Shown: positions 16,019-26,926, numbered from the stretch's first letter. The stretch: DNA of 64,000 bases from Escherichia coli (GCF_003334255.1 NZ_QOWU01000015.1); one strand, 5' to 3'. Numbers and translations are program-made. Notes: generated by a model from the letters alone, not told the origin.

Positions 16019-16057
16019 GCGAAACGGTGATTTGCTGTCAATGTGCTCGTTGTTCAT

Positions 16058-16155
16058 GCCGGATGCGGCGTGAACGCCTTATCCGGCCTACAAAACTTTG
16101 CAAATTCAATATATTGCAATCTCCGTGTAGGCCTGATAAGCGTAGCGCATCAGGC
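16058..16155. repeat. RIP/BIME-type element: two inverted REP palindromes flanking an A/T-rich central spacer
   Basis: gccggatgcggcgtgaacgccttatccggcctac ... gtaggcctgataagcgtagcgcatcaggc. Confidence 0.75.
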
Positions 16156-16215: not shown

Positions 16216-17409
16216 TCAAATCTGTCGTAACTGCGCCTCAACATACAAATAGCCAATTCCCAGCACCTGTTGTGCGCGGCTTAATTGCCCAAAGCCAATT
16301 TGCGTCGCTTTCACGCTCGGTCCTTCGTCGCGGTCGAACGGGTTAAATCCTGTCTGGCGAATAATAGTATTAAGCCAGTTCTCACCAAAGGCACAACTGC
16401 GACCGTACAACCAAATCTGATTAATATTGAGGATGTTGAGGAAGTTATACAGACTCAAACCAATGGCATTGGCAGAGCGATCAACCCAGCTGGTGATCCA
16501 CGGTTCTCCACTTTGCCAGGCAGCGATTAACTGCGCTGTAGTCAGTTTTTCAGGATCAAGTTGAGTACTAACCGGTTGTGATTTTAGCCATACCCGCGCC
16601 TGTTTTTTTAATGCGCTTAACGAGGCGACGGTTTCCAGGCAGCCATAACGTCCACAGTCGCAGACGACGCCATCCGGATTAACGATGGTGTGACCAATCT
16701 GTCCGCTACCATACAAACTGCCGCGATAAATTTGCTCGTTAATCACGAACGACGAGCCAATGCCGTAATCAACGTTGATCACGCAGAAATCCCGTTCCTG
16801 CGAATTATTTTGCCATTTCTCCGCCAGCGCCAGCATCACGCAGTCATTATCGACCATCACCCGAATGCCGAGCTTCTCTTCCAGCAGATATTTCACCTCC
16901 ACCGGCGTTGTCCACGGCGCTTGCGGCATGGTTTGCGACACGCCGGTCACAGGATCAACCTGACCGTGGATTGCCAACGCCAGGTTGATGGTATGGTCCG
17001 GCCACAATTTACGGTGGCGATGCCAGCATTTTTCGATTTCGGACAGCAGCGCCTGCGGCGTCGGTGCATCAATCTGTAAATACTCAAATTCACCTTTCGG
17101 ACTTAAACAAGCATTAGCAACCTGACACTCAATACTGGTGGGCGTCACGTTCAGGCACAGCGTCCAGTCACCTTCCGGCGCAATCAGCCATGTACCGCTA
17201 CTATGCCCGCGCGTATGGCTTTCATCGTCGATATTCACCACCCGTTTTTCGCTTTCCAGTTCCTGCAAAATATTACTGACTGCCGGAATCGAAATTTGCG
17301 CCAGTCGGGCCAGCGTTGATTTATTGGCGCGCTTTTGCCGGTACAGCAGTTCCAGAATCACGCATTTGTTATGGTGGCGGATCTGTTGATTGTTAATGCA
17401 GGCTCTCAT
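16216..17409 (-). CDS. yphH: ROK-family transcriptional regulator (397 aa)
   Basis: N-terminal HTH, ROK glucokinase-like fold with CxCGxxGC zinc motif (CDCGRYGC). Confidence 0.87.
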   Translation of the reverse strand: MRACINNQQIRHHNKCVILELLYRQKRANKSTLARLAQISIPAVSNILQELESEKRVVNIDDESHTRGHSSGTWLIAPEGDWTLCLNVTPTSIECQVANACLSPKGEFEYLQIDAPTPQALLSEIEKCWHRHRKLWPDHTINLALAIHGQVDPVTGVSQTMPQAPWTTPVEVKYLLEEKLGIRVMVDNDCVMLALAEKWQNNSQERDFCVINVDYGIGSSFVINEQIYRGSLYGSGQIGHTIVNPDGVVCDCGRYGCLETVASLSALKKQARVWLKSQPVSTQLDPEKLTTAQLIAAWQSGEPWITSWVDRSANAIGLSLYNFLNILNINQIWLYGRSCAFGENWLNTIIRQTGFNPFDRDEGPSVKATQIGFGQLSRAQQVLGIGYLYVEAQLRQI

Positions 17410-17526
17410 CTTCACTAAACCTTGTTTAGTTAATTGCGTGATTATTCCGCGAAAACATTGCCAGATTGTTCAATACACTGCCACAAATCTTTTAATTCAG
17501 TATGTCTTGTTAATATTGAGGGCACC

Positions 17527-20500
17527 ATGACTCCAGTAAAAGTGTGGCAAGAGCGCGTTGAGATCCCGACCTATGAAACCGGGCCGCAGGATATACATCC
17601 CATGTTCCTGGAAAATCGCGTTTATCAGGGATCGTCCGGCGCGGTTTATCCCTATGGCGTGACCGATACGCTGAGCGAGCAGAAAACCCTGAAATCCTGG
17701 CAGGCGGTGTGGCTGGAAAACGACTACATCAAAGTGATGATCCTGCCGGAACTGGGCGGTCGTGTGCATCGCGCATGGGATAAAGTGAAACAACGCGATT
17801 TTGTTTATCACAATGAAGTCATTAAACCTGCGCTGGTGGGGCTGCTGGGACCGTGGATCTCCGGTGGGATTGAGTTTAACTGGCCGCAACACCATCGCCC
17901 GACCACCTTTATGCCCGTTGATTTCACCCTCGAAGCCCATGAAGACGGCGCACAGACGGTGTGGGTCGGCGAAACGGAGCCGATGCATGGTTTACAGGTG
18001 ATGACAGGTTTCACCCTGCGCCCTGACCGGGCGGCGCTGGAAATCGCCAGCCGCGTCTATAACGGCAACGCCACGCCGCGTCATTTCTTGTGGTGGGCCA
18101 ACCCGGCAGTGAAAGGGGGGGAAGGGCATCAGAGCGTTTTCCCGCCGGATGTAACGGCGGTGTTTGATCACGGCAAACGGGCCGTCTCCGCTTTCCCCAT
18201 CGCCACCGGCACTTACTACAAAGTGGACTACTCCGCTGGAGTGGACATTTCTCGCTATAAAAATGTGCCCGTTCCAACCTCATATATGGCTGAAAAATCA
18301 CAGTACGATTTTGTTGGCGCGTGGTGTCACGATGAAGATGGCGGTTTGCTGCACGTTGCCAACCACCATATTGCGCCAGGTAAAAAACAGTGGAGTTGGG
18401 GACACAGTGAATTTGGCCAGGCGTGGGACAAGAGCCTGACCGACAATAACGGCCCGTATATCGAACTGATGACCGGTATTTTTGCCGATAACCAGCCTGA
18501 TTTTACCTGGCTTGATGCTTACGAAGAGAAGCGTTTCGAGCAGTATTTCCTGCCTTATCATTCTCTGGGCATGGTGCAAAATGCCTCCCGCGATGCGGTG
18601 ATAAAACTCCAGCGTAGTGAGCGGGGGATTGAGTGGGGGCTGTATGCCATCTCTCCGTTGAACGGATACCGCCTGGCGATCCGCGAAATCGGCAAATGCA
18701 ACGCGTTACTTGATGATGCCGTGGCCTTGACACCAGCGACCGCCATCCAGGGCGTGTTGCACGGTATCAATCCTGAAAGGCTGACCATTGAGCTCTCCGA
18801 TGCCGACGGCAATATTGTACTGAGTTATCAGGAACATCAGCCGCAAGAGTTGCCGTTGCCGGACGTCGCCAAAGCGCCACTGGCAGCACAAGACATTACC
18901 AGTACAGATGAAGCCTGGTTTATCGGTCAGCATCTGGAGCAATATCATCACGCCAGCCGTTCACCGTTCGATTACTACCTGCGCGGTGTGGCGCTGGATC
19001 CGCTGGATTACCGCTGTAACCTGGCGCTGGCGATGCTGGAATATAACCGCGCAGATTTCCCACAAGCGGTGGCGTATGCCACTCAGGCGCTGAAACGCGC
19101 ACATGCGCTGAACAAAAATCCGCAGTGCGGACAGGCGAGTTTGATTCGCGCCAGTGCTTACGAACGTCAGGGACAATATCAACAAGCCGAAGAGGATTTC
19201 TGGCGTGCGGTCTGGAGCGGCAACAGCAAAGCAGGCGGCTATTATGGTCTGGCACGACTGGCGGCGCGTAATGGAAACTTCGACGCGGGTCTGGATTTTT
19301 GCCAACACAGTCTTCGCACCTGCCCAACCAATCAGGAAGTGCTTTGCCTGCATAATCTGCTGCTGGTGTTAAGTGGTCGTCAGGACAACGCGCGTTTGCA
19401 GCGCGAGAAACTGCTGCGCGATTATCCGCTGAACGCCACTCTGTGGTGGCTGAACTGGTTCGATGGTCGTAGCGAATCAGCTCTCGCGCAGTGGCGCGGT
19501 CTGTGTCAGGGACGCGACGTTAACGCCCTGATGACCGCCGGGCAACTGATTAACTGGGGAATGCCCACCCTGGCGGCAGAGATGCTGAACGCACTGGACT
19601 GCCAGCGCACGCTGCCGCTTTACCTGCAAGCCAGCTTGCTGCCGAAAGCCGAACGTGGCGAACTGGTCGCAAAAGCCATTGATGTCTTCCCGCAGTTTGT
19701 CCGTTTCCCGAATACGTTGGAAGAAGTGGCGGCGCTGGAGAGTATTGAAGAGTGCTGGTTTGCTCGCCATTTACTGGCCTGCTTCTACTACAACAAACGT
19801 AGCTACAACAAAGCCATTGCCTTATGGCAACGTTGCGTAGAGATGTCGCCGGAGTTTGCCGACGGCTGGCGCGGGTTAGCGATCCATGCGTGGAATAAGC
19901 AACACGATTATGAGCTGGCCGCGCGTTATCTTGATAATGCTTATCAGCTTGCGCCGCAGGATGCACGTCTGCTTTTCGAACGGGATTTGCTTGATAAGTT
20001 AAGTGGAGCCACACCGGAGAAACGACTGGCGCGTCTGGAAAATAATCAGGAAATTGCGCTGAAACGCGACGACATGACCGCAGAACTGCTCAATTTGTGG
20101 CATCTCACGGGTCAGGCAGACAAAGCGGCGGACATTCTCGCCACGCGTAAATTCCACCCGTGGGAAGGCGGGGAAGGGAAGGTCACCAGTCAGTTTATCC
20201 TCAACCAGTTATTACGCGCCTGGCAGCATCTTGATGCCAGACAGCCGCAGCAGGCCAGCGAACTGCTTCATGCCGCGCTGCATTATCCGGAGAATTTAAG
20301 CGAAGGCCGTTTACCGGGGCAAACTGATAACGACATCTGGTTCTGGCAGGCGATATGCGCCAACGCGCAGGGCGATGAAACTGAAGCGATGCGTTGTTTA
20401 CGTCTGGCGGCGACCGGCGATCGCACCATTAACATCCACAGTTATTACAACGATCAGCCGGTTGATTATCTCTTCTGGCAAGGAATGGCGCTGCGACTGC

Positions 20501-20808
20501 TGGGTGAACAGCAAACCGCACAGCAACTGTTTAGTGAAATGAAACAGTGGGCGCAAGAGATGGCGAAAACCAGTATTGAGGCGGATTTCTTTGCTGTTTC
20601 ACAACCTGACCTGTTGTCGCTGTATGGCGATTTACAACAGCAGCATAAAGAAAAATGCCTGATGGTGGCGATGCTGGCGTCCGCGGGACTCGGGGAGGTT
20701 GCGCAATATGAATCTGCTCGCGCTGAATTGACGGCGATTAATCCGGCCTGGCCGAAAGCGGCATTATTCACCACCGTGATGCCTTTTATTTTTAACTACG
20801 TTCACTAA
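17527..20808 (+). CDS. yphG: Large uncharacterised protein (1093 aa) with TPR-like C-terminal half
   Basis: Track ORF 17434..20808 trimmed to the ATG preceded by a GAGGG Shine-Dalgarno; no signal peptide; synteny. Confidence 0.85.
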   Translation: MTPVKVWQERVEIPTYETGPQDIHPMFLENRVYQGSSGAVYPYGVTDTLSEQKTLKSWQAVWLENDYIKVMILPELGGRVHRAWDKVKQRDFVYHNEVIKPALVGLLGPWISGGIEFNWPQHHRPTTFMPVDFTLEAHEDGAQTVWVGETEPMHGLQVMTGFTLRPDRAALEIASRVYNGNATPRHFLWWANPAVKGGEGHQSVFPPDVTAVFDHGKRAVSAFPIATGTYYKVDYSAGVDISRYKNVPVPTSYMAEKSQYDFVGAWCHDEDGGLLHVANHHIAPGKKQWSWGHSEFGQAWDKSLTDNNGPYIELMTGIFADNQPDFTWLDAYEEKRFEQYFLPYHSLGMVQNASRDAVIKLQRSERGIEWGLYAISPLNGYRLAIREIGKCNALLDDAVALTPATAIQGVLHGINPERLTIELSDADGNIVLSYQEHQPQELPLPDVAKAPLAAQDITSTDEAWFIGQHLEQYHHASRSPFDYYLRGVALDPLDYRCNLALAMLEYNRADFPQAVAYATQALKRAHALNKNPQCGQASLIRASAYERQGQYQQAEEDFWRAVWSGNSKAGGYYGLARLAARNGNFDAGLDFCQHSLRTCPTNQEVLCLHNLLLVLSGRQDNARLQREKLLRDYPLNATLWWLNWFDGRSESALAQWRGLCQGRDVNALMTAGQLINWGMPTLAAEMLNALDCQRTLPLYLQASLLPKAERGELVAKAIDVFPQFVRFPNTLEEVAALESIEECWFARHLLACFYYNKRSYNKAIALWQRCVEMSPEFADGWRGLAIHAWNKQHDYELAARYLDNAYQLAPQDARLLFERDLLDKLSGATPEKRLARLENNQEIALKRDDMTAELLNLWHLTGQADKAADILATRKFHPWEGGEGKVTSQFILNQLLRAWQHLDARQPQQASELLHAALHYPENLSEGRLPGQTDNDIWFWQAICANAQGDETEAMRCLRLAATGDRTINIHSYYNDQPVDYLFWQGMALRLLGEQQTAQQLFSEMKQWAQEMAKTSIEADFFAVSQPDLLSLYGDLQQQHKEKCLMVAMLASAGLGEVAQYESARAELTAINPAWPKAALFTTVMPFIFNYVH

Positions 20809-20904
20809 ACCCTATTAACTGTAATATTTGAGCGGCATGCGCTGCCGCTCATCACAAAATAATTAGAATAAGCCGTTGTTAATAAAAACCCTACAGGAGG
20901 CACT

Positions 20905-21888
20905 ATGCCTAAAAAAATGAGAACAACCCGTAATCTATTATTAATGGCTACGCTATTAGGTAGCGCACTATTTGCCAGGGCTGCGGATAAAGAAATGACC
21001 ATTGGTGCAATATACCTTGATACCCAGGGATATTACGCTGGAGTGCGTCAGGGCGTTCAGGATGCGGCAAAAGATTCTTCAGTACAGGTACAGTTAATTG
21101 AAACTAACGCCCAGGGTGATATTTCGAAAGAAAGTACCTTTGTTGATACCCTCGTGGCGCGTAATGTCGATGCCATTATTTTATCGGCAGTGTCTGAAAA
21201 TGGCAGTAGCCGTACCGTTCGTCGCGCCAGTGAAGCGGGTATTCCGGTGATTTGCTACAACACCTGTATTAATCAAAAGGGTGTCGATAAATATGTCTCG
21301 GCGTATCTGGTCGGCGATCCACTGGAATTTGGTAAAAAACTGGGTAACGCTGCCGCCGATTATTTTATTGCCAATAAAATTGACCAGCCGAAAATTGCCG
21401 TCATCAATTGCGAAGCCTTTGAAGTTTGTGTGCAGCGACGTAAAGGATTTGAAGAAGTATTAAAATCCCGCGTTCCCGGCGCGCAAATTGTCGCTAATCA
21501 GGAAGGGACTGTTTTAGATAAAGCGATTTCCGTTGGTGAAAAACTGATTATCTCCACGCCGGATCTCAACGCCATTATGGGGGAGTCGGGCGGTGCGACA
21601 CTCGGCGCGGTAAAAGCGGTACGTAATCAAAATCAGGCCGGAAAAATTGCTGTTTTCGGTTCGGATATGACAACCGAAATTGCTCAGGAGCTGGAAAACA
21701 ATCAGGTGCTGAAAGCGGTAGTGGATATTTCCGGTAAGAAAATGGGCAATGCTGTTTTCGCGCAAACATTGAAGGTTATCAATAAACAAGCCGACGGTGA
21801 AAAAGTGATTCAGGTGCCAATCGATCTCTATACCAAAACGGAAGATGGTAAACAGTGGCTGGCAACGCACGTTGATGGTCTGCCCTAA
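20905..21888 (+). CDS. yphF: ABC transporter periplasmic sugar-binding protein
   Basis: Signal peptide, periplasmic-binding-protein type I fold; AGGAGG RBS. Confidence 0.9.
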   Translation: MPKKMRTTRNLLLMATLLGSALFARAADKEMTIGAIYLDTQGYYAGVRQGVQDAAKDSSVQVQLIETNAQGDISKESTFVDTLVARNVDAIILSAVSENGSSRTVRRASEAGIPVICYNTCINQKGVDKYVSAYLVGDPLEFGKKLGNAAADYFIANKIDQPKIAVINCEAFEVCVQRRKGFEEVLKSRVPGAQIVANQEGTVLDKAISVGEKLIISTPDLNAIMGESGGATLGAVKAVRNQNQAGKIAVFGSDMTTEIAQELENNQVLKAVVDISGKKMGNAVFAQTLKVINKQADGEKVIQVPIDLYTKTEDGKQWLATHVDGLP

Positions 21889-21910
21889 TCGCTGATTCGC
21901 AGAGGTCCCT

Positions 21911-23422
21911 ATGTTCACGGCAACAGAGGCAGTCCCGGTAGCAAAAGTGGTGGCAGGAAATAAGCGTTACCCCGGCGTCGTTGCGCTGGATAACGTTAAC
22001 TTCACGCTCAATAAAGGCGAAGTTCGTGCGCTGTTAGGTAAAAACGGCGCGGGCAAATCGACTCTCATTCGAATGCTTACCGGCAGCGAACGCCCGGATA
22101 GCGGTGATATCTGGATTGGCGAGACGCGACTGGAAGGTGACGAAGCTACGTTGACTCGCCGTGCCGCTGAACTGGGGGTTCGTGCGGTTTATCAGGAATT
22201 AAGTCTGGTGGAAGGGCTGACGGTGGCGGAAAACCTCTGCCTCGGTCAGTGGCCCCGCCGCAACGGCATGATTGATTACCTGCAAATGGCGCAGGATGCC
22301 CAACGTTGCTTACAGGCGCTGGGCGTTGACGTTAGTCCTGAACAACTTGTTTCAACGCTAAGCCCGGCGCAAAAGCAGCTGGTGGAAATTGCGCGGGTGA
22401 TGAAGGGCGAGCCGCGCGTGGTCATTCTTGATGAACCTACCAGTTCGCTTGCGAGTGCGGAAGTTGAACTGGTGATCAGCGCGGTGAAAAAGATGTCGGC
22501 ACTGGGCGTGGCGGTGATTTATGTCAGCCACCGGATGGAAGAAATTCGCCGCATTGCCTCCTGTGCCACCGTTATGCGCGATGGTCAGGTGGCGGGCGAT
22601 GTGATGCTCGAAAACACCTCCACGCATCATATTGTGTCGCTAATGCTAGGGCGTGATCACGTTGATATTGCGCCGGTAGCCCCTCAGGAAATTGTGGATC
22701 AGGCCGTACTGGAAGTCCGTGCGTTACGCCATAAGCCCAAGCTGGAGGATATCAGCTTTACGCTACGTCGTGGCGAAGTGCTTGGCATTGCTGGCCTGCT
22801 GGGGGCAGGGCGCAGTGAATTGCTGAAGGCGATTGTTGGGCTGGAGACGTATGAACAGGGCGAAATTGTTATCAACGGCGAGAAAATCATGCGCCCCGAT
22901 TACGGCGACATGCTGAAACGCGGCATTGGCTATACGCCAGAAAACCGCAAAGAAGCGGGGATCATTCCCTGGCTGGGCGTTGACGAAAATACAGTGCTGA
23001 CCAATCGGCAAAAAATCAGCACCAACGGTGTGCTGCAATGGTCCACCATCCGCCGCCTGACCGAAGAGGTGATGCAGCGGATGACGGTCAAGGCTGCCAG
23101 TAGCGAAACACCCATCGGCACGCTTTCTGGTGGCAATCAGCAAAAAGTGGTGATCGGTCGTTGGGTCTATGCCGCCAGCCAGATTTTGTTGCTCGACGAG
23201 CCAACGCGCGGCGTCGATATCGAAGCCAAACAGCAGATTTACCGTATTGTCCGTGAGCTGGCTGCCGAAGGAAAAAGCGTGGTGTTTATCTCCAGTGAAG
23301 TGGAGGAGTTGCCGCTGGTGTGCGACCGCATCCTGTTGTTACAGCACGGTACGTTCTCGCAGGAGTTTCACTCGCCGGTCAATGTGGATGAGCTGATGTC
23401 CGCCATTCTGTCTGTGCACTGA
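21911..23422 (+). CDS. yphE: ABC transporter ATP-binding protein with duplicated ABC domains (sugar type)
   Basis: Walker A GKNGAGKST, signature LSGGNQQK, second ABC domain. Confidence 0.92.
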   Translation: MFTATEAVPVAKVVAGNKRYPGVVALDNVNFTLNKGEVRALLGKNGAGKSTLIRMLTGSERPDSGDIWIGETRLEGDEATLTRRAAELGVRAVYQELSLVEGLTVAENLCLGQWPRRNGMIDYLQMAQDAQRCLQALGVDVSPEQLVSTLSPAQKQLVEIARVMKGEPRVVILDEPTSSLASAEVELVISAVKKMSALGVAVIYVSHRMEEIRRIASCATVMRDGQVAGDVMLENTSTHHIVSLMLGRDHVDIAPVAPQEIVDQAVLEVRALRHKPKLEDISFTLRRGEVLGIAGLLGAGRSELLKAIVGLETYEQGEIVINGEKIMRPDYGDMLKRGIGYTPENRKEAGIIPWLGVDENTVLTNRQKISTNGVLQWSTIRRLTEEVMQRMTVKAASSETPIGTLSGGNQQKVVIGRWVYAASQILLLDEPTRGVDIEAKQQIYRIVRELAAEGKSVVFISSEVEELPLVCDRILLLQHGTFSQEFHSPVNVDELMSAILSVH

Positions 23423-23446
23423 TGAATTTTACCGAGGAACCTGAAG

Positions 23447-24445
23447 ATGTCTGCTTCGTCATTATCATTGCCGCAGGGCAAGAGCGTCTCGCTCAAACAA
23501 TTTGTCAGTCGCCATATTAATGAGATCGGTTTGCTGGTGGTAATCGCCATTCTTTATCTGGTCTTCTCCCTGAACGCGCCTGGCTTTATCTCATTGAATA
23601 ACCAGATGAACGTGCTGCGCGATGCCGCCACCATTGGGATTGCCGCCTGGGCGATGACGCTGATTATTATCTCCGGTGAAATTGATGTCAGCGTTGGGCC
23701 GATGGTGGCTTTTGTCTCGGTGTGCCTGGCATTTTTGCTGCAATTTGAAGTTCCGTTGGCGATTGCTTGTCTGCTGGTGTTGCTGTTAGGCGCGCTGATG
23801 GGAACGCTCGCCGGGGTGCTGCGCGGCGTGTTTAACGTACCAAGTTTCGTTGCCACACTGGGGCTGTGGAGCGCCCTGCGCGGAATGGGGCTGTTTATGA
23901 CCAACGCACTGCCAGTGCCGATTGACGAAAACGAGGTGCTGGACTGGCTGGGCGGACAATTTCTCGGTGTGCCAGTATCCGCGCTGATCATGATGGTGTT
24001 GTTTGCGCTGTTTGTGTTCATTAGCCGAAAAACCGCCTTCGGGCGCTCGGTTTTTGCCGTTGGCGGTAATGCCACGGCGGCGCAGTTGTGCGGCATCAAC
24101 GTTCGTCGGGTACGCATTCTTATCTTTACCCTTTCGGGATTATTAGCGGCGGTGACCGGCATTTTGTTGGCGGCGCGCCTCGGTTCCGGTAACGCAGGTG
24201 CCGCAAACGGTCTGGAGTTTGACGTCATCGCCGCGGTCGTGGTCGGCGGTACGGCACTTTCCGGCGGTCGCGGTTCCCTGTTCGGTACATTGCTTGGTGT
24301 GCTGGTGATTACGCTAATCGGTAACGGTCTGGTGCTGCTCGGTATTAACTCCTTTTTCCAGCAGGTGGTACGCGGCGTCATCATCGTGGTGGCGGTGCTG
24401 GCGAATATCTTGCTGACCCAGCGAAGCAGTAAAGCGAAACGCTAA
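23447..24445 (+). CDS. yphD: ABC transporter permease
   Basis: Polytopic hydrophobic protein, ribose/xylose-permease-like. Confidence 0.92.
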   Translation: MSASSLSLPQGKSVSLKQFVSRHINEIGLLVVIAILYLVFSLNAPGFISLNNQMNVLRDAATIGIAAWAMTLIIISGEIDVSVGPMVAFVSVCLAFLLQFEVPLAIACLLVLLLGALMGTLAGVLRGVFNVPSFVATLGLWSALRGMGLFMTNALPVPIDENEVLDWLGGQFLGVPVSALIMMVLFALFVFISRKTAFGRSVFAVGGNATAAQLCGINVRRVRILIFTLSGLLAAVTGILLAARLGSGNAGAANGLEFDVIAAVVVGGTALSGGRGSLFGTLLGVLVITLIGNGLVLLGINSFFQQVVRGVIIVVAVLANILLTQRSSKAKR

Positions 24446-24510
24446 ACCTTAACGCCCCTGGCGCGGGTGCGGCAGGGATGAAAATTAATCGTATTGTTAA
24501 TGAGGGATTT

Positions 24511-25572
24511 ATGAAAACGATGCTGGCAGCTTATTTACCAGGAAATTCGACCGTCGATCTGCGGGAAGTTGCGGTGCCGACGCCGGGGATTAACCAGGTA
24601 CTGATCAAAATGAAATCCTCCGGGATTTGCGGAAGCGATGTCCACTATATCTATCATCAACACCGTGCCACAGCGGCGGCACCCGATAAACCGTTATACC
24701 AGGGCTTTATCAACGGTCATGAACCGTGCGGGCAGATTGTGGCGATGGGGCAAGGCTGCCGCCATTTTAAAGAGGGCGACCGCGTGCTGGTGTATCACAT
24801 TTCTGGCTGTGGTTTTTGCCCGAACTGCCGCCGCGGCTTTCCTATCTCTTGTACTGGCAAAGGAAAAGCGGCTTACGGCTGGCAGCGTGACGGCGGTCAT
24901 GCCGAATATCTGCTGGCGGAAGAAAAAGATCTGATCCTCCTGCCGGATGCGCTGAGCTACGAAGATGGTGCGTTTATCAGTTGCGGCGTTGGCACGGCCT
25001 ATGAAGGGATTTTGCGCGGCGAAGTTTCCGGCAGCGATAACGTGCTGGTGGTCGGTCTGGGGCCGGTCGGCATGATGGCGATGATGCTGGCGAAAGGTCG
25101 CGGTGCAAAACGGATCATCGGCGTTGATATGCTGCCGGAACGTCTGGCGATGGCAAAACAGTTAGGGGTGATGGATCACGGCTATTTAGCGACCACCGAA
25201 GGTCTGCCGCAGATAATTGCTGAACTTACCCACGGTGGCGCGGATGTTGCGCTCGATTGTTCCGGTAATGCCGCAGGTCGCTTGCTGGCACTGCAATCCA
25301 CTGCTGACTGGGGGCGGGTGGTTTACATTGGTGAAACCGGAAAAGTGGAATTCGAGGTCAGCGCCGATCTGATGCACCATCAACGGCGGATTATTGGCTC
25401 CTGGGTGACCAGTCTGTTCCATATGGAAAAATGCGCCCACGATTTAACGGACTGGAAACTGTGGCCGCGTAACGCCATTACCCATCGCTTCTCGCTGGAA
25501 CAGGCAGGTGATGCCTATGCGCTGATGGCGAGCGGCAAATGCGGGAAAGTTGTGATTAACTTCCCGGATTAA
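24511..25572 (+). CDS. yphC: Zn-dependent alcohol/polyol dehydrogenase (MDR family)
   Basis: GHEPCG zinc motif, GLGPVG Rossmann motif; start trimmed from 24478 to the ATG with a GAGGGA RBS. Confidence 0.87.
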   Translation: MKTMLAAYLPGNSTVDLREVAVPTPGINQVLIKMKSSGICGSDVHYIYHQHRATAAAPDKPLYQGFINGHEPCGQIVAMGQGCRHFKEGDRVLVYHISGCGFCPNCRRGFPISCTGKGKAAYGWQRDGGHAEYLLAEEKDLILLPDALSYEDGAFISCGVGTAYEGILRGEVSGSDNVLVVGLGPVGMMAMMLAKGRGAKRIIGVDMLPERLAMAKQLGVMDHGYLATTEGLPQIIAELTHGGADVALDCSGNAAGRLLALQSTADWGRVVYIGETGKVEFEVSADLMHHQRRIIGSWVTSLFHMEKCAHDLTDWKLWPRNAITHRFSLEQAGDAYALMASGKCGKVVINFPD

Positions 25573-25583
25573 GGAGTTAGCGG

Positions 25584-26456
25584 ATGACCATCTATACCTT
25601 ATCCCACGGGTCGCTAAAGCTGGACGTTTCTGACCAGGGCAGCGTAATCGAAGGCTTCTGGCGCGATACGACGCCGCTCTTACGTCCTGGTAAAAAAAGC
25701 GGTGTGGCAACCGATGCCTCCTGTTTTCCGCTGGTGCCGTTTGCAAACCGGGTGAGCGGCAACCATTTTGTCTGGCAGGGGCGTGAGTATCAATTGCAAC
25801 CGAATGTTGAATGGGATGCGCACTATCTGCACGGCGACGGCTGGCTGGGGCAGTGGCAATGTGTCTCGCGCAATGATGATAGCTTGTGTCTGGTGTATGA
25901 ACATCGCAGCGGTGTTTATCACTATCGGGTAAGTCAGGCGTTTCATTTAACGGCGGATACGCTGACGGTGACGCTCTCTGTCACCAATCAAGGAGCAGAG
26001 ACGCTGCCATTTGGTACCGGCTGGCATCCTTATTTTCCGTTGTCACCACAAACGCGGATTCAGGCGCAGGCGAGCGGTTACTGGCTGGAACGGGAGCAGT
26101 GGCTGGCGGGTGAGTTTTGCGAGCAGCTACCGCAGGAACTGGATTTTAACCAGCTCGCGCCGTTGCCGCGCCAGTGGGTGAACAATGGTTTTGCCGGATG
26201 GAATGGTCAGGCCCGCATCGAGCAGCCGCAGGAAGGTTATGCCATCATCATGGAAACGACGCCACCTGCACCGTGTTATTTCATCTTTGTTTCCGACCCT
26301 GCGTTTGATAAAGGATATGCGTTTGATTTCTTCTGTCTGGAACCGATGAGCCATGCGCCGGATGATCATCATCGCCCGGAAGGGGGTGATCTCATTGCGC
26401 TAGCACCAGGGGAATCAACAACTTCAGAGATGTCGTTGCGGGTAGAGTGGCTGTAA
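25584..26456 (+). CDS. yphB: Aldose 1-epimerase (mutarotase)-family protein
   Basis: 290-aa ORF; family assignment by synteny and size. Confidence 0.85.
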   Translation: MTIYTLSHGSLKLDVSDQGSVIEGFWRDTTPLLRPGKKSGVATDASCFPLVPFANRVSGNHFVWQGREYQLQPNVEWDAHYLHGDGWLGQWQCVSRNDDSLCLVYEHRSGVYHYRVSQAFHLTADTLTVTLSVTNQGAETLPFGTGWHPYFPLSPQTRIQAQASGYWLEREQWLAGEFCEQLPQELDFNQLAPLPRQWVNNGFAGWNGQARIEQPQEGYAIIMETTPPAPCYFIFVSDPAFDKGYAFDFFCLEPMSHAPDDHHRPEGGDLIALAPGESTTSEMSLRVEWL

Positions 26457-26466
26457 TTTATTAAAT

Positions 26467-26497
26467 GCCGGATAAGGCGTTCACGCCGCATCCGGCA
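26467..26497. repeat. Single REP palindrome
   Basis: gccggataaggcgttcacgccgcatccggc. Confidence 0.6.
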
Positions 26498-26503
26498 TCT
26501 TTC

Positions 26504-26926
26504 CTAACGCCGATCGAGAGAAATTGCCCCCGGCCCGGTAATTGCCAATAGCAAGAACGCGCCAGCGATACTGACATTCTTCCAGAAATTAATCATATTT
26601 GGCCCAACCGCATCGCCGGTCATATCCCAGTAATGGTGACCAATCACCGCCGTACCCAGCGTGTAGAAAATAAACAGCACCGCCAGCGGACGGGTGAAAA
26701 AGCCAAGCACGATTAATATCGCGGCGGGCACTTCCATAACTACCGCAATAATCGCTGCCAGCATCGGCATTGGCGCGCCCAACGAGGCCATATATTGGAC
26801 CGTACCGTCAAAGCCCATCATTTTGGGAAAACCAAAAATAATGAAAATTAAGACCACGGCGATACGGGCAATTAATAACAAAACGGGGCGGGCAGCTCCA
26901 AAATCAAAATAACGTAGTGTGTTCAT
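26504..26926 (-). CDS. yphA: DoxX-family inner membrane protein (140 aa)
   Basis: [29 protein letters not shown]...; four predicted TM helices. Confidence 0.85.

Follow-up and report, generated by a model that had tools for sequence, protein, structure and literature searches.

What does the yph locus of Escherichia coli import, and which of its products carries out the chemistry? Within the window, by which we mean the whole 64-kb stretch of DNA analysed, positions 16216-26926 correspond to the E. coli yphH / yphGFEDCB / yphA locus; all 10,711 bases are 100% identical by megablast to E. coli G1/2, where RefSeq lists the identical eight gene names and products. The locus is matched in 5,426 of 5,426 complete E. 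coli genomes, with at least 80% query coverage and 95-100% identity in 5,371 of them, and in one strain IS1A lies within yphE. This is a long-catalogued orphan locus, encoding a regulated sugar importer and cytoplasmic sugar-handling proteins. The searchable literature yields no substrate assignment for it, and none of its genes reaches an NCBIfam equivalog cut-off, in keeping with the first-pass annotation, which had treated the cluster as one without an assigned role. That annotation's open reading frames and gene content agree with RefSeq, and its family assignments are borne out (YphH, ROK; YphFED, ABC; YphC, Zn-dependent medium-chain dehydrogenase; YphB, aldose-1-epimerase family; YphA, DoxX), as is its picture of a sugar-uptake module with a divergent ROK regulator. 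The features of the region are as follows.

16216-17409, minus strand: yphH, ROK-family transcription regulator (RefSeq "ROK family protein"), probable repressor of the cluster
17410-17526, no strand: divergent yphH-yphG control region, with a palindrome in a conserved block
17415-17429: perfect palindrome CTAAACCTTGTTTAG, candidate YphH operator
17527-20808, plus strand: yphG, cytoplasmic protein of 1,093 aa with DUF5107 and TPR repeats
20829-20851, plus strand: hairpin TGAGCGGCA-TGCGC-TGCCGCTCA, perfect 9-bp stem, in the 96-bp yphG-yphF gap
20905-21888, plus strand: yphF, periplasmic binding component of a CUT2-type sugar ABC importer
21911-23422, plus strand: yphE, fused double ABC ATPase, 503 aa
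23447-24445, plus strand: yphD, the importer's single membrane permease, 332 aa
24478-25572, plus strand: yphC, Zn-dependent medium-chain (polyol-type) dehydrogenase, accessory component
25584-26456, plus strand: yphB, aldose-1-epimerase-family protein, 290 aa
26465-26498, no strand: REP-type palindrome ATGCCGGATAAGGCGTTCACGCCGCATCCGGCAT between the convergent yphB and yphA
26504-26926, minus strand: yphA, DoxX-family inner-membrane protein (RefSeq)

Regulator, importer and accessory proteins

YphH, which PMC4288165 counts as a third ROK repressor in E. coli and calls uncharacterised, combines an N-terminal HTH, a ROK sugar-kinase-like domain and the ROK zinc motif CDCGRYGCLE (pattern CxCGxxGCxE), the features expected of a ROK repressor. 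Its best NCBIfam matches are NagC (111.5 bits, cut-off 650) and Mlc (106.1 bits, cut-off 530), and residues 9-334 align with the Mlc model, HTH region included. In the intergenic space upstream, the palindrome CTAAACCTTGTTTAG sits in a conserved block at about 17411-17445 (...ACTAAACCnnGTTnAnTnnATTGCGTGAT), the inverted repeat itself spanning 17411-17433, and this block is shared by E. coli, Klebsiella, Serratia and Aeromonas (alignment A1). The exact palindrome occurs once in the window, and the motif lies 5' of yphG homologues in 13 of 15 regions of Enterobacterales, Aeromonas and Photobacterium (14 fetched loci and the window). It is a candidate operator to which YphH may bind. Since the same control block precedes yphG whether the accompanying transporter is of the ABC or the MFS type, the same inducer is implied for both. 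A consensus scan of the control region detected no promoter-like site, a point against the explanation preferred below.

The plus-strand genes from yphG through yphB are separated, in order, by 96, 22, 24, 32 and 11 bp, a spacing compatible with a single operon. The perfect hairpin in the first gap, where folding of 20800-20910 gives -24.5 kcal/mol (z = -2.65 relative to shuffled sequences), may act as an mRNA-stability or attenuating element. No T-run follows it in the sequence, and it is not a classic terminator.

YphFED shows hallmarks of CUT2 importers: a substrate-binding protein in the Peripla_BP (RbsB/MglB) class that carries a signal for export, a tandem ATPase of about 500 aa and a BPD_transp_2 permease. 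The YphF translation begins with a Sec-type signal peptide, MPKKMRTTRNLLLMATLLGSALFARA/AD. Its NCBIfam matches are led by AlsB (64 bits, cut-off 335), followed by MglB, LsrB, the rhizopine-binding protein and RbsB, with YtfQ also represented, all far below their cut-offs; the nearest solved binding protein is 5hsg (91 bits), and ribose, galactose and allose binding proteins are among the PDB matches. YphE aligns end to end with AraG (454.8 bits, cut-off 689), XylG, AlsA and RbsA, MglA also being among its best matches, and YphD is closest to RbsC (227 bits) and AraH (221 bits), again under the cut-offs. With every score below its curated threshold, YphFED does not qualify as an equivalog of any system of known substrate. 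That YphF is not specifically MglB-like, its best match being AlsB, weighs against the galactose-centred explanation preferred below. The protein is made: YphF has been detected at levels 3.0-4.6-fold higher on levoglucosan than on fructose (PMC8753852), and in uropathogenic E. coli a yphF mutant was among those picked for fitness or in vitro defects (PMC11032443).

The YphC translation contains motifs for catalytic Zn (ICGSDVH, GHEPCG), a Cys cluster for structural Zn (CGFCPNCRRGFPISC) and the GxGxxG nucleotide fold (GLGPVG), as in Zn-dependent medium-chain dehydrogenases generally. Only the ATG at 24511 has a Shine-Dalgarno sequence ahead of it, and the Klebsiella orthologue has 353 aa; the real start is probably this one, giving a protein of that same length. 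Relatives are abundant, with 22 medium-chain dehydrogenase families among the NCBIfam matches and 108 PDB entries at E <= 1e-20. The best family scores, Tdh (171.6 bits, cut-off 380) and scyllo-inosose 3-dehydrogenase IolM (169.1 bits, cut-off 450), fall short of equivalence to an enzyme of known substrate, and in the PDB its closest relatives are alcohol, xylitol and threonine dehydrogenases.

YphB is near-identical over residues 1-290 to PDB 3nre, "aldose 1-epimerase b2544" (684 bits). Both the fold and the His/His/Asp/Glu set of aldose-1-epimerases are present, H83, H148, D187 and E253 being invariant among YphB and its orthologues from both cluster variants (alignment A2); by analogy with GalM, we take these to be the catalytic residues. 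The literature searched contains no report of its mutarotase activity or substrate.

Beyond yphB, the REP-type palindrome overlaps a sub-threshold Rfam match to the REP-derived naRNA4 (26466-26535; 39 bits, gathering score 59.5). YphA has a single weak NCBIfam match, to the HvfX family (40.9 bits, cut-off 80). Its gene is linked to the cluster only in Enterobacteriaceae, and there in differing positions: Klebsiella and Enterobacter sp. Ag1 have it adjoining the ROK gene. The clusters of Serratia and Aeromonas lack it. The convergent DoxX gene had been counted as part of the cluster; its position and family stand, and its product is probably a neighbour outside the pathway.

YphG and the company it keeps

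YphG had been described as TPR-like, which is correct as far as it goes and incomplete. The AF2 model (pLDDT 95.1) comprises an aldose-1-epimerase-fold beta-sandwich domain at about residues 1-345 (Pfam DUF5107), a second beta-sandwich at about 346-440, and a TPR-like solenoid from 460 to 1093. The solenoid is a TPR structure by Pfam (TPR_16, E 2.7e-6 and 4.4e-4), by its roughly 30 helices across residues 460-1092, and by Foldseek matches to the TPR superhelices of OGT, Ski3 and Ctr9, and it holds conserved non-helical loops (F876-PWEGGEG-884 and P921-NLGEG). In the epimerase-fold domain about 60 positions, many of them polar, are conserved at 90% or more across the family, including an invariant E313 and 99% conserved H122/H123. 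In a co-linear profile alignment these match YphB's catalytic Glu and first His, although the hhalign probability for the YphG N-domain against the YphB/GalM profile is 1.2%; in the same low-confidence alignment the second catalytic His falls on R185/H186, which the family does not conserve. Pfam finds only DUF5107 and TPR families in YphG, with no Aldose_epim match, and the protein has no similarity to known CAZy catalytic domains of glycoside hydrolases or polysaccharide lyases. Because an epimerase fold is here combined with a dense set of conserved polar residues, YphG is probably the key enzyme of the cluster. The 630-residue solenoid with its conserved loops is left unaccounted for by the explanation we prefer, and counts against it, as do the low alignment probability and the variable position matched to the second His.

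Comparison of genomes points to the same protein. Sister clusters in Enterobacter sp. Ag1, Serratia, Aeromonas, Citrobacter, Cedecea and Photobacterium consist of a ROK gene and YphG, an MFS sugar porter and a mutarotase-like protein, with no dehydrogenase; the porter is XylE-like (359-366 bits, sugar-porter subfamily cut-off 237.8). YphC accompanies only the ABC variant; E. coli, Klebsiella, Enterobacter BIGb0383 and Budvicia retain it. A metagenomic homologue of YphG (34% identity) retains the CUT2 ABC genes and Aldose_epim with an AraC regulator. The conserved core, as judged from gene content, is thus YphG with a monosaccharide-type transporter (CUT2 ABC or XylE-like MFS) and a small mutarotase, and not YphC.

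Bacteroidota, Bacillota and Bifidobacterium have full-length cytoplasmic homologues (about 40% identity), whose usual neighbours are GH2/GH35 beta-galactosidases, an AraC-type regulator and the same sugar porter. Among 68 distant loci, all outside Enterobacterales, Aeromonas and Photobacterium, the AraC-type regulator is found in 43, the porter in 36 and a monosaccharide-type transporter of either kind in 42; YphC is missing from most. A GH2 (BT4151/BT4156-like) or GH35 beta-galactosidase lies no more than four genes away in 32, and some galacto-enzyme in 40 when GalM, a beta-L-arabinopyranosidase-like gene and GH97 alpha-galactosidase are added. The YphG-adjacent porters are about 52% identical across phyla. 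In these loci YphG never carries a signal peptide, and GH2 carries one in Bacteroidota and lacks it in Bacillota or Bifidobacterium; this places YphG in the cytoplasm, downstream of the galactosidase product. Across the wider family, predicted signal peptides mark a subgroup of 21 of 89 representatives, and a fusion to CBM9 also occurs, features that argue for carbohydrate chemistry needing neither ATP nor NAD; GDSL esterases, like alpha- and beta-galactosidases, are often found nearby. From these contexts, the YphG family is a widespread, uncharacterised one that stands beside sugar transporters and beta-galactosidases in many bacterial phyla. The link to galactose is one of guilt by association, through homologues that share only about 40% identity with the E. 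coli protein, and this too tells against our preferred explanation.

Proposed function and its alternatives

The explanation we favor, at what we judge to be evenly balanced chances, is that yph forms a module, induced by its substrate, for a neutral carbohydrate of monosaccharide size, most probably galactose-configured, which is processed at its anomeric centre. YphH would repress from the conserved yphH-yphG palindrome and be released when the sugar is present; YphF, YphE and YphD, CUT2-type by sequence, would import it. YphG and YphB, both of aldose-1-epimerase fold, would then act on its anomeric or ring form, the former through an epimerase-type pocket capped by the TPR solenoid, the latter as a small canonical mutarotase. 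Their product could feed into a central pathway that the cell already has, the Leloir pathway for example, without the cluster having to supply another enzyme. YphC, an NAD-type Zn dehydrogenase, would be accessory, probably linking in that sugar in a polyol or oxidised form. A glycoside, which the first-pass annotation had allowed, is a less likely cargo than a free monosaccharide because both transporter types linked to YphG are monosaccharide types.

Should that explanation hold, our best guess is that YphG is a cofactor-independent anomerase or ring-form isomerase, a suggestion we nonetheless regard as somewhat doubtful. Against galactose as the cargo, E. coli already has the galactose systems MglBAC, GalP and GalM. 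With a second mutarotase at hand, YphB in the operon and GalM in six Bacteroidota loci, a plain mutarotase role for YphG looks redundant. More speculatively, and in our estimation rather unlikely, YphG may found a new class of cofactor-independent carbohydrate-active enzyme, its epimerase-fold pocket completed by loops of the solenoid, and the pairing of monosaccharide transporter and YphG may be a widespread, unrecognised galactose-type step. If so, the unit would serve galactose-type sugars from plant and algal galactans, in E. coli, gut Bacteroidota, Lachnospiraceae and bifidobacteria alike. The locus itself being already catalogued, what is new here is comparative and structural.

The accompanying mutarotase can also be read differently. 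In the classic logic of lacZ and galM, an enzyme that releases an anomer is followed by a canonical mutarotase, and the presence of YphB or GalM with YphG would fit a new glycoside-cleaving enzyme (hydrolase, lyase or phosphorylase-like) acting on a small imported galactoside, such as a galactosyl-polyol (glyceryl-galactoside or galactinol, for instance), with YphB mutarotating the aldose and YphC oxidising the polyol aglycone. The polyol-type relatives of YphC (IolM, xylitol and sorbitol dehydrogenases) suit such a role, the signal-peptide members and the CBM9 fusion suggest glycans as targets, and the neighbouring GDSL esterases and galactosidases also speak for it; we consider this proposal unlikely.

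The first-pass annotation read the gene content as import and oxidation of a sugar; spelled out as a pathway, this would make YphC the committed enzyme, YphB a helper mutarotase and YphG a non-catalytic TPR scaffold. YphC has intact Zn and nucleotide motifs and is retained in E. coli, Klebsiella, Enterobacter BIGb0383 and Budvicia, and a yphC knockout grew below wild type on myo-inositol, where wild-type growth was itself marginal (OD 0.017; PMC3423039). The gene is nevertheless dispensed with in the MFS-type clusters and most distant loci, where YphG is the transporter's constant partner; the conserved polar residues of YphG are unlike those of a scaffold, and the cluster encodes no lactonase, dehydratase or kinase for an oxidised product, so that oxidation as the theme does not survive well and this account appears quite improbable.

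Very improbable, in turn, is a YphG that serves as a cytoplasmic sugar sensor, a pseudo-enzyme binding sugar in its epimerase-like pocket and controlling a regulator, transporter or central enzyme through the solenoid. TPR solenoids usually serve protein-protein contacts, the position matched to the mutarotases' second catalytic His varies in the family, and Mlc, a ROK relative of YphH, is controlled by protein sequestration. Against this, the regulator (ROK in Enterobacterales, AraC-type elsewhere) and transporter (ABC or MFS) change family while YphG stays, so that no constant partner is evident; some relatives have predicted signal peptides, and the Glu that corresponds to the catalytic base never varies. 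That yph survives in E. coli only as a cryptic remnant, decaying and without current function, as the want of a promoter-like site, the lack of any known growth phenotype and the one IS1A insertion might suggest, can hardly be maintained given near-universal intactness, a detected and regulated YphF, and a control block kept across genera.

Relation to known systems

YphH shares with Mlc and NagC the zinc motif, the HTH region (by the Mlc alignment) and divergence from a presumed target operon, yet scores only 106-111 bits where their cut-offs are 530-650. Its linker motif is unlike the GR motif of those two repressors (PMC4288165), and the candidate operator CTAAAC-N3-GTTTAG is not a site of NagC/Mlc type.

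The transporter matches the architecture of the E. coli CUT2 operons (rbsDACBKR, alsRBACEK, xylFGHR, araFGH, mglBAC, ytfQRT-yjfF), namely a fused double ATPase of about 500 aa, one or more BPD_transp_2 permeases and a binding protein of Peripla_BP type that bears a signal peptide, and rbs resembles yph further in encoding a ring-form or anomer-converting protein, RbsD, with its transporter. Unlike these operons, yph has no kinase or isomerase, has a ROK regulator rather than one of the LacI, RpiR or AraC families, and includes the 1,093-aa YphG, which has no counterpart there.

Set beside the aldose-1-epimerase family (GalM, the hexose-6-phosphate mutarotase YeaD, the sulfoquinovose mutarotase YihR), the YphG domain is recognised by DUF5107 and not Aldose_epim, appears to lack a conserved second His, has additional conserved Lys, Arg, His and Asp residues, and is fused to a second beta-sandwich and the solenoid. 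PDB 5cd6 (BDI_1685 of Parabacteroides distasonis, a structural-genomics "TPR-domain containing protein" of 575-580 aa) is half the length of YphG and, its function being unknown, gives no guide to mechanism. Closest in genomic setting are the Bacteroides pectic-galactan and RG-I loci and the gal/lac logic of beta-galactosidase, GalM and GalK. For the loci in which YphG homologues lie beside BT4151/BT4156-like GH2, GH35, GalM, GH97, SusC/D and a sugar porter, the literature searched holds no description of a role for YphG; the E. coli cluster has no glycosidase of its own.

Identity and conservation of the yph locus

The yph cluster (window 16216-26926) is identical to the DNA of E. coli strain G1/2 over its full length (100%), and the eight ORFs placed here by the first-pass annotation were exactly matched in position, with the following RefSeq products.

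RefSeq assignments of the yph genes in E. coli strain G1/2
yphH, - strand: ROK family protein
yphG, + strand: DUF5107 domain-containing protein
yphF, + strand: substrate-binding protein
yphE, + strand: sugar ABC ATPase
yphD, + strand: permease
yphC, + strand: zinc-dependent alcohol dehydrogenase family
yphB, + strand: aldose 1-epimerase
yphA, - strand: DoxX family

Flanked by glyA at one end and the hca operon at the other, the cluster has a match in every one of 5,426 complete E. coli genomes; in 5,371 of them (99%) that match spans 80% or more of the query, nearly all at 95-100% identity. The locus is thus long catalogued and represents no new sequence feature. Interrupted or shortened sequences are on record: in E. 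coli WP7-S17-ESBL-04 (NZ_AP022177.1, 5896-8184 of the fetched locus) an IS1A in yphE has left two annotated pseudogene fragments, and several large clusters of shortened E. coli YphG sequences (P0009, P0033, P0002, P0028 and P0038, with sizes including 900 aa in 1,109 members and 692 aa in 1,402 members) are either contig-edge fragments or real truncated alleles.

The first-pass annotation had described the block as one of unassigned function, and this description stands: no substrate is assigned to the cluster in the literature searched, from whose scope most subscription journals fell, and searches with DUF5107/PF17128/5CD6 and with mutarotase-like, tetratricopeptide and galactosidase terms gave no functional assignment. 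None of the eight Yph proteins reached an NCBIfam equivalog cut-off. One paper counts YphH as a third ROK repressor of E. coli, as yet uncharacterized (PMC4288165); the crystal structure of YphB, 3nre, has served purely as a structural reference (PMC5902678); and a yphF mutant was among those taken further for fitness defects in uropathogenic E. coli (PMC11032443). YphF protein rose 3.0-4.6-fold on levoglucosan versus fructose, alongside XylF, MalE, MglA and UgpB, in a study with knockouts limited to xylF and kgtP that pointed to XylF (PMC8753852); we rejected levoglucosan as the yph substrate, this joint rise looking like general derepression. Also set aside was myo-inositol, on which a yphC knockout grew slightly more poorly in an experiment where the wild type reached just OD 0.017, an effect too weak for use (PMC3423039).

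Individual products carry family signatures, including the ROK zinc motif CDCGRYGCLE in YphH, a Sec signal peptide in YphF, both Zn motifs and the GLGPVG fold in YphC, and in YphB a His/His/Asp/Glu set (H83, H148, D187, E253) kept in all aligned orthologues. The annotated start of yphC is probably 11 codons too far upstream: the RefSeq ATG at 24478 (364 aa) has no Shine-Dalgarno sequence, and an in-frame ATG at 24511 has GAGGGA ahead of it and yields a 353-aa product, as long as the Klebsiella orthologue.

Constant core and control region

YphG homologues with 55-60% identity occur in Enterobacter sp. Ag1, Serratia, Aeromonas, Citrobacter, Cedecea and Photobacterium, in a sister cluster where a ROK regulator is divergent from YphG, an MFS sugar porter and a mutarotase-like protein. 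The porter is XylE-like and lies above the sugar-porter subfamily cut-off. The E. coli-type arrangement recurs in Klebsiella, Enterobacter BIGb0383 and Budvicia. Because the sister clusters dispense with both the ABC system and the dehydrogenase and keep the other components, the constant core is a regulator, YphG, a monosaccharide-type transporter and a small mutarotase, YphC being an accessory of the ABC variant. yphA adjoins the cluster only in Enterobacteriaceae and is missing from the Serratia and Aeromonas clusters; Klebsiella and Enterobacter sp. Ag1 have it immediately downstream of the ROK gene, E. coli at the opposite cluster end, which implies local rearrangement.

The surroundings of these clusters vary. 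In Enterobacter sp. Ag1 (L002, 977-7754) glyA and the yph-like cluster are separated by another CUT2 ABC system, which has two permeases, together with an FGGY kinase and a SIS-domain protein; this set is missing from E. coli at the same position. In Klebsiella, Enterobacter sp. Ag1, Citrobacter and Cedecea the mutarotase gene is followed by a LacY-type symporter and a PRD-domain regulator in convergent orientation, where E. coli has the hca operon. The module of Aeromonas enteropelogenes is at an island boundary, with a phage-type integrase, AlpA and further mobile-element genes directly next to the ROK gene (L004/L005, 7079-8431) and an aga-type N-acetylgalactosamine PTS cluster at its other side.

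Gaps of 96, 22, 24, 32 and 11 bp separate the + strand genes, a spacing compatible with a single operon. The yphH-yphG control region spans 117 bp, within which no good sigma-70 consensus was found; a promoter/terminator scan gave counts no higher than in shuffled sequence. A perfect palindrome, CTAAACCTTGTTTAG (17415-17429), occurs once in the 64-kb window and lies in a conserved block of 35 bp, ACTAAACC..GTT.A.T..ATTGCGTGA (17411-17445), common to Klebsiella, Enterobacter, Citrobacter, Cedecea, Budvicia, Serratia and Aeromonas and found in 13 of the 15 regions examined (14 fetched loci from Enterobacterales, Aeromonas and Photobacterium, plus the window). It is the obvious candidate for the YphH operator. 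Since the upstream block is common to both, the ABC and MFS variants presumably respond to the same sugar. A reading of the conserved GCGTGA block as a CRP site was set aside, just one half-site matching. Elsewhere, a hairpin with a perfect 9-bp stem and no T-tract (20829-20851, fold z = -2.65) occupies the yphG-yphF gap and might set the yphG/transporter mRNA ratio or shield the 3' end of the yphG transcript. REP-type palindromes lie on both sides, between the convergent yphB and yphA (26465-26498) and between glyA and yphH (16052-16134), and an Rfam scan returned nothing but sub-threshold REP-type matches (naRNA4/ES036).

YphG family across phyla and its predicted structure

An exhaustive search of 1.84 billion representatives recovered 5,698 relatives of YphG, 1,159 of them at E <= 1e-30, and at that threshold the family holds over 1,100 clusters of 50% identity; many relatives align end to end (28-45% identity, 1,050-1,150 aa). 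Scanning of species-representative genomes yielded loci from four groups: Bacteroidota (Mucilaginibacter, Pedobacter, Flavobacterium, Chitinophaga, Prevotella, Muribaculaceae and marine Flavobacteriia), Bacillota (Paenibacillus, Lachnospiraceae, Butyrivibrio, Hungatella and Bacillus), Bifidobacterium and Gammaproteobacteria. ORFs were called, four neighbours per side were clustered by BLASTP, and the clusters were named with NCBIfam and Pfam.

Genes within four genes of YphG at 68 loci outside Enterobacterales, Aeromonas and Photobacterium
AraC-type regulator: 43/68
Sugar porter, mostly directly upstream on the same strand: 36/68
Monosaccharide-type transporter of either kind: 42/68
GH2 (BT4151/BT4156-like) or GH35 beta-galactosidase: 32/68
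Any galacto-enzyme (adding GalM, GH97 alpha-galactosidase and a beta-L-arabinopyranosidase-like gene): 40/68

The YphG-adjacent porters are about 52% identical between Enterobacterales and other phyla, which argues that YphG and its transporter travel together. Signal or lipoprotein peptides are found on the GH2 neighbours at all Bacteroidota loci and at none in Bacillota or Bifidobacterium, and YphG has a signal peptide at none of these neighbourhood loci. This pattern of exported or cytoplasmic GH2 beside a YphG that stays within argues that YphG works in the cytoplasm, after exo-galactosidase action. Its substrate would then be a free galactose-type monosaccharide, imported in Bacteroidota and E. 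coli or released intracellularly in Gram-positives. Among 89 full-length representatives of the wider family, 21 are extended at the N-terminus by a segment with a hydrophobic stretch (predicted signal peptide). Two family members with predicted signal peptides bear an additional C-terminal domain, P0258 a CBM9_1 (E 4.8e-8) and P0201 an endonuclease/exonuclease/phosphatase (EEP) domain (E 4.6e-19). As the 21 are apparently exported, the chemistry of the family cannot generally depend on ATP or NAD; a kinase or phosphorylase role, considered in view of the many conserved Lys/Arg, is disfavoured with no general ATP cosubstrate at hand. A role as the regulator's partner is disfavoured too, the regulator family differing between phyla.

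With 29 close homologues AlphaFold left the DUF5107 part at pLDDT <50; with 67 diverse sequences the AF2 model of YphG reached pLDDT 95.1 and pTM 0.93.

Features of YphG in the AF2 model (residues)
1-345: beta-sandwich
About 346-440: second beta-sandwich
460-1093: TPR-like solenoid of ~30 helices
F876-PWEGGEG and P921-NLGEG: conserved non-helical loops interrupting the solenoid

The label "TPR-like", which the first-pass annotation had applied to the whole protein, suits residues 460-1093, and residues 1-345 instead form a beta-sandwich of epimerase fold. In this N-terminal part about 60 positions show conservation of 90% or more across the family. Conserved polar or charged residues of YphG are R31, Q34, E64, N65, D85, K86, K100, E116, N118, R124, N179, N192, D208, H215, N246, S252, H276, K286, K287, D306, N322, Q323, D325 and K335, and, in the solenoid, R782, E818, R847, D848, D849 and E880. 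Candidate catalytic residues are E313 and E333, both invariant, together with H122 and H123. Local, not global, hhalign gave a co-linear match to YphB, of low probability, that pairs E313 with the catalytic Glu and H122/H123 with the first His, the second His finding no conserved counterpart in YphG. A GH15/65/94-like architecture (beta-sandwich plus alpha/alpha barrel) was rejected, as the helical part matches open TPR superhelices. An AFDB50 fold search with YphG returned nothing but unnamed DUF5107 and TPR proteins, and we found no description of an enzyme joining an epimerase fold to a TPR architecture.

Proposed role and relation to known systems

With families, folds, synteny and a conserved control site established, a provisional scheme can be drawn. 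YphH would repress from the palindrome; YphFED would import a neutral sugar of monosaccharide size, most probably with galacto configuration; YphG and YphB would act at its anomeric centre or ring form; and the product could join an existing pathway with no further cluster-encoded enzymes needed, YphC probably linking a polyol or oxidised form of the sugar. Our chosen reading of YphG itself, though less probable than not, is a cofactor-independent anomerase or ring-form isomerase. That the same operons also encode a canonical mutarotase, and that the solenoid is unexplained, argue for a function beyond plain mutarotation.

We judge it unlikely that YphG is a new type of glycoside-cleaving enzyme that splits a small galactoside into two products, one dealt with by YphB and the other by YphC. 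The oxidation-centred pathway of the first-pass annotation, with YphG as a scaffold, has become improbable: it accommodates YphC in the ABC variant and loses its central enzyme in the MFS-type sister clusters, where this dehydrogenase is missing. We give slightly less credence still to YphG as a non-catalytic sugar sensor, and a cryptic remnant is very improbable.

The yph cluster is one of the larger E. coli gene blocks lacking evidence of function, and the comparison recasts it from the problem of an orphan ABC transporter to that of an orphan enzyme family, members of which, in bacteria that degrade polysaccharides in gut and soil, have beta-galactosidases and a conserved sugar porter as neighbours. 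The YphG reaction, once found, would annotate thousands of genes and could expose an overlooked step in galactose or plant-glycan metabolism. New here are the structural assignment of YphG and a connection, across phyla, to beta-galactosidase loci; the locus itself was already catalogued. Its transporter is an ordinary member of the CUT2 ABC importers and YphH an ordinary ROK repressor; among known sugar operons the locus is of a familiar type, set apart by YphG, a member of a large family without a characterised relative.
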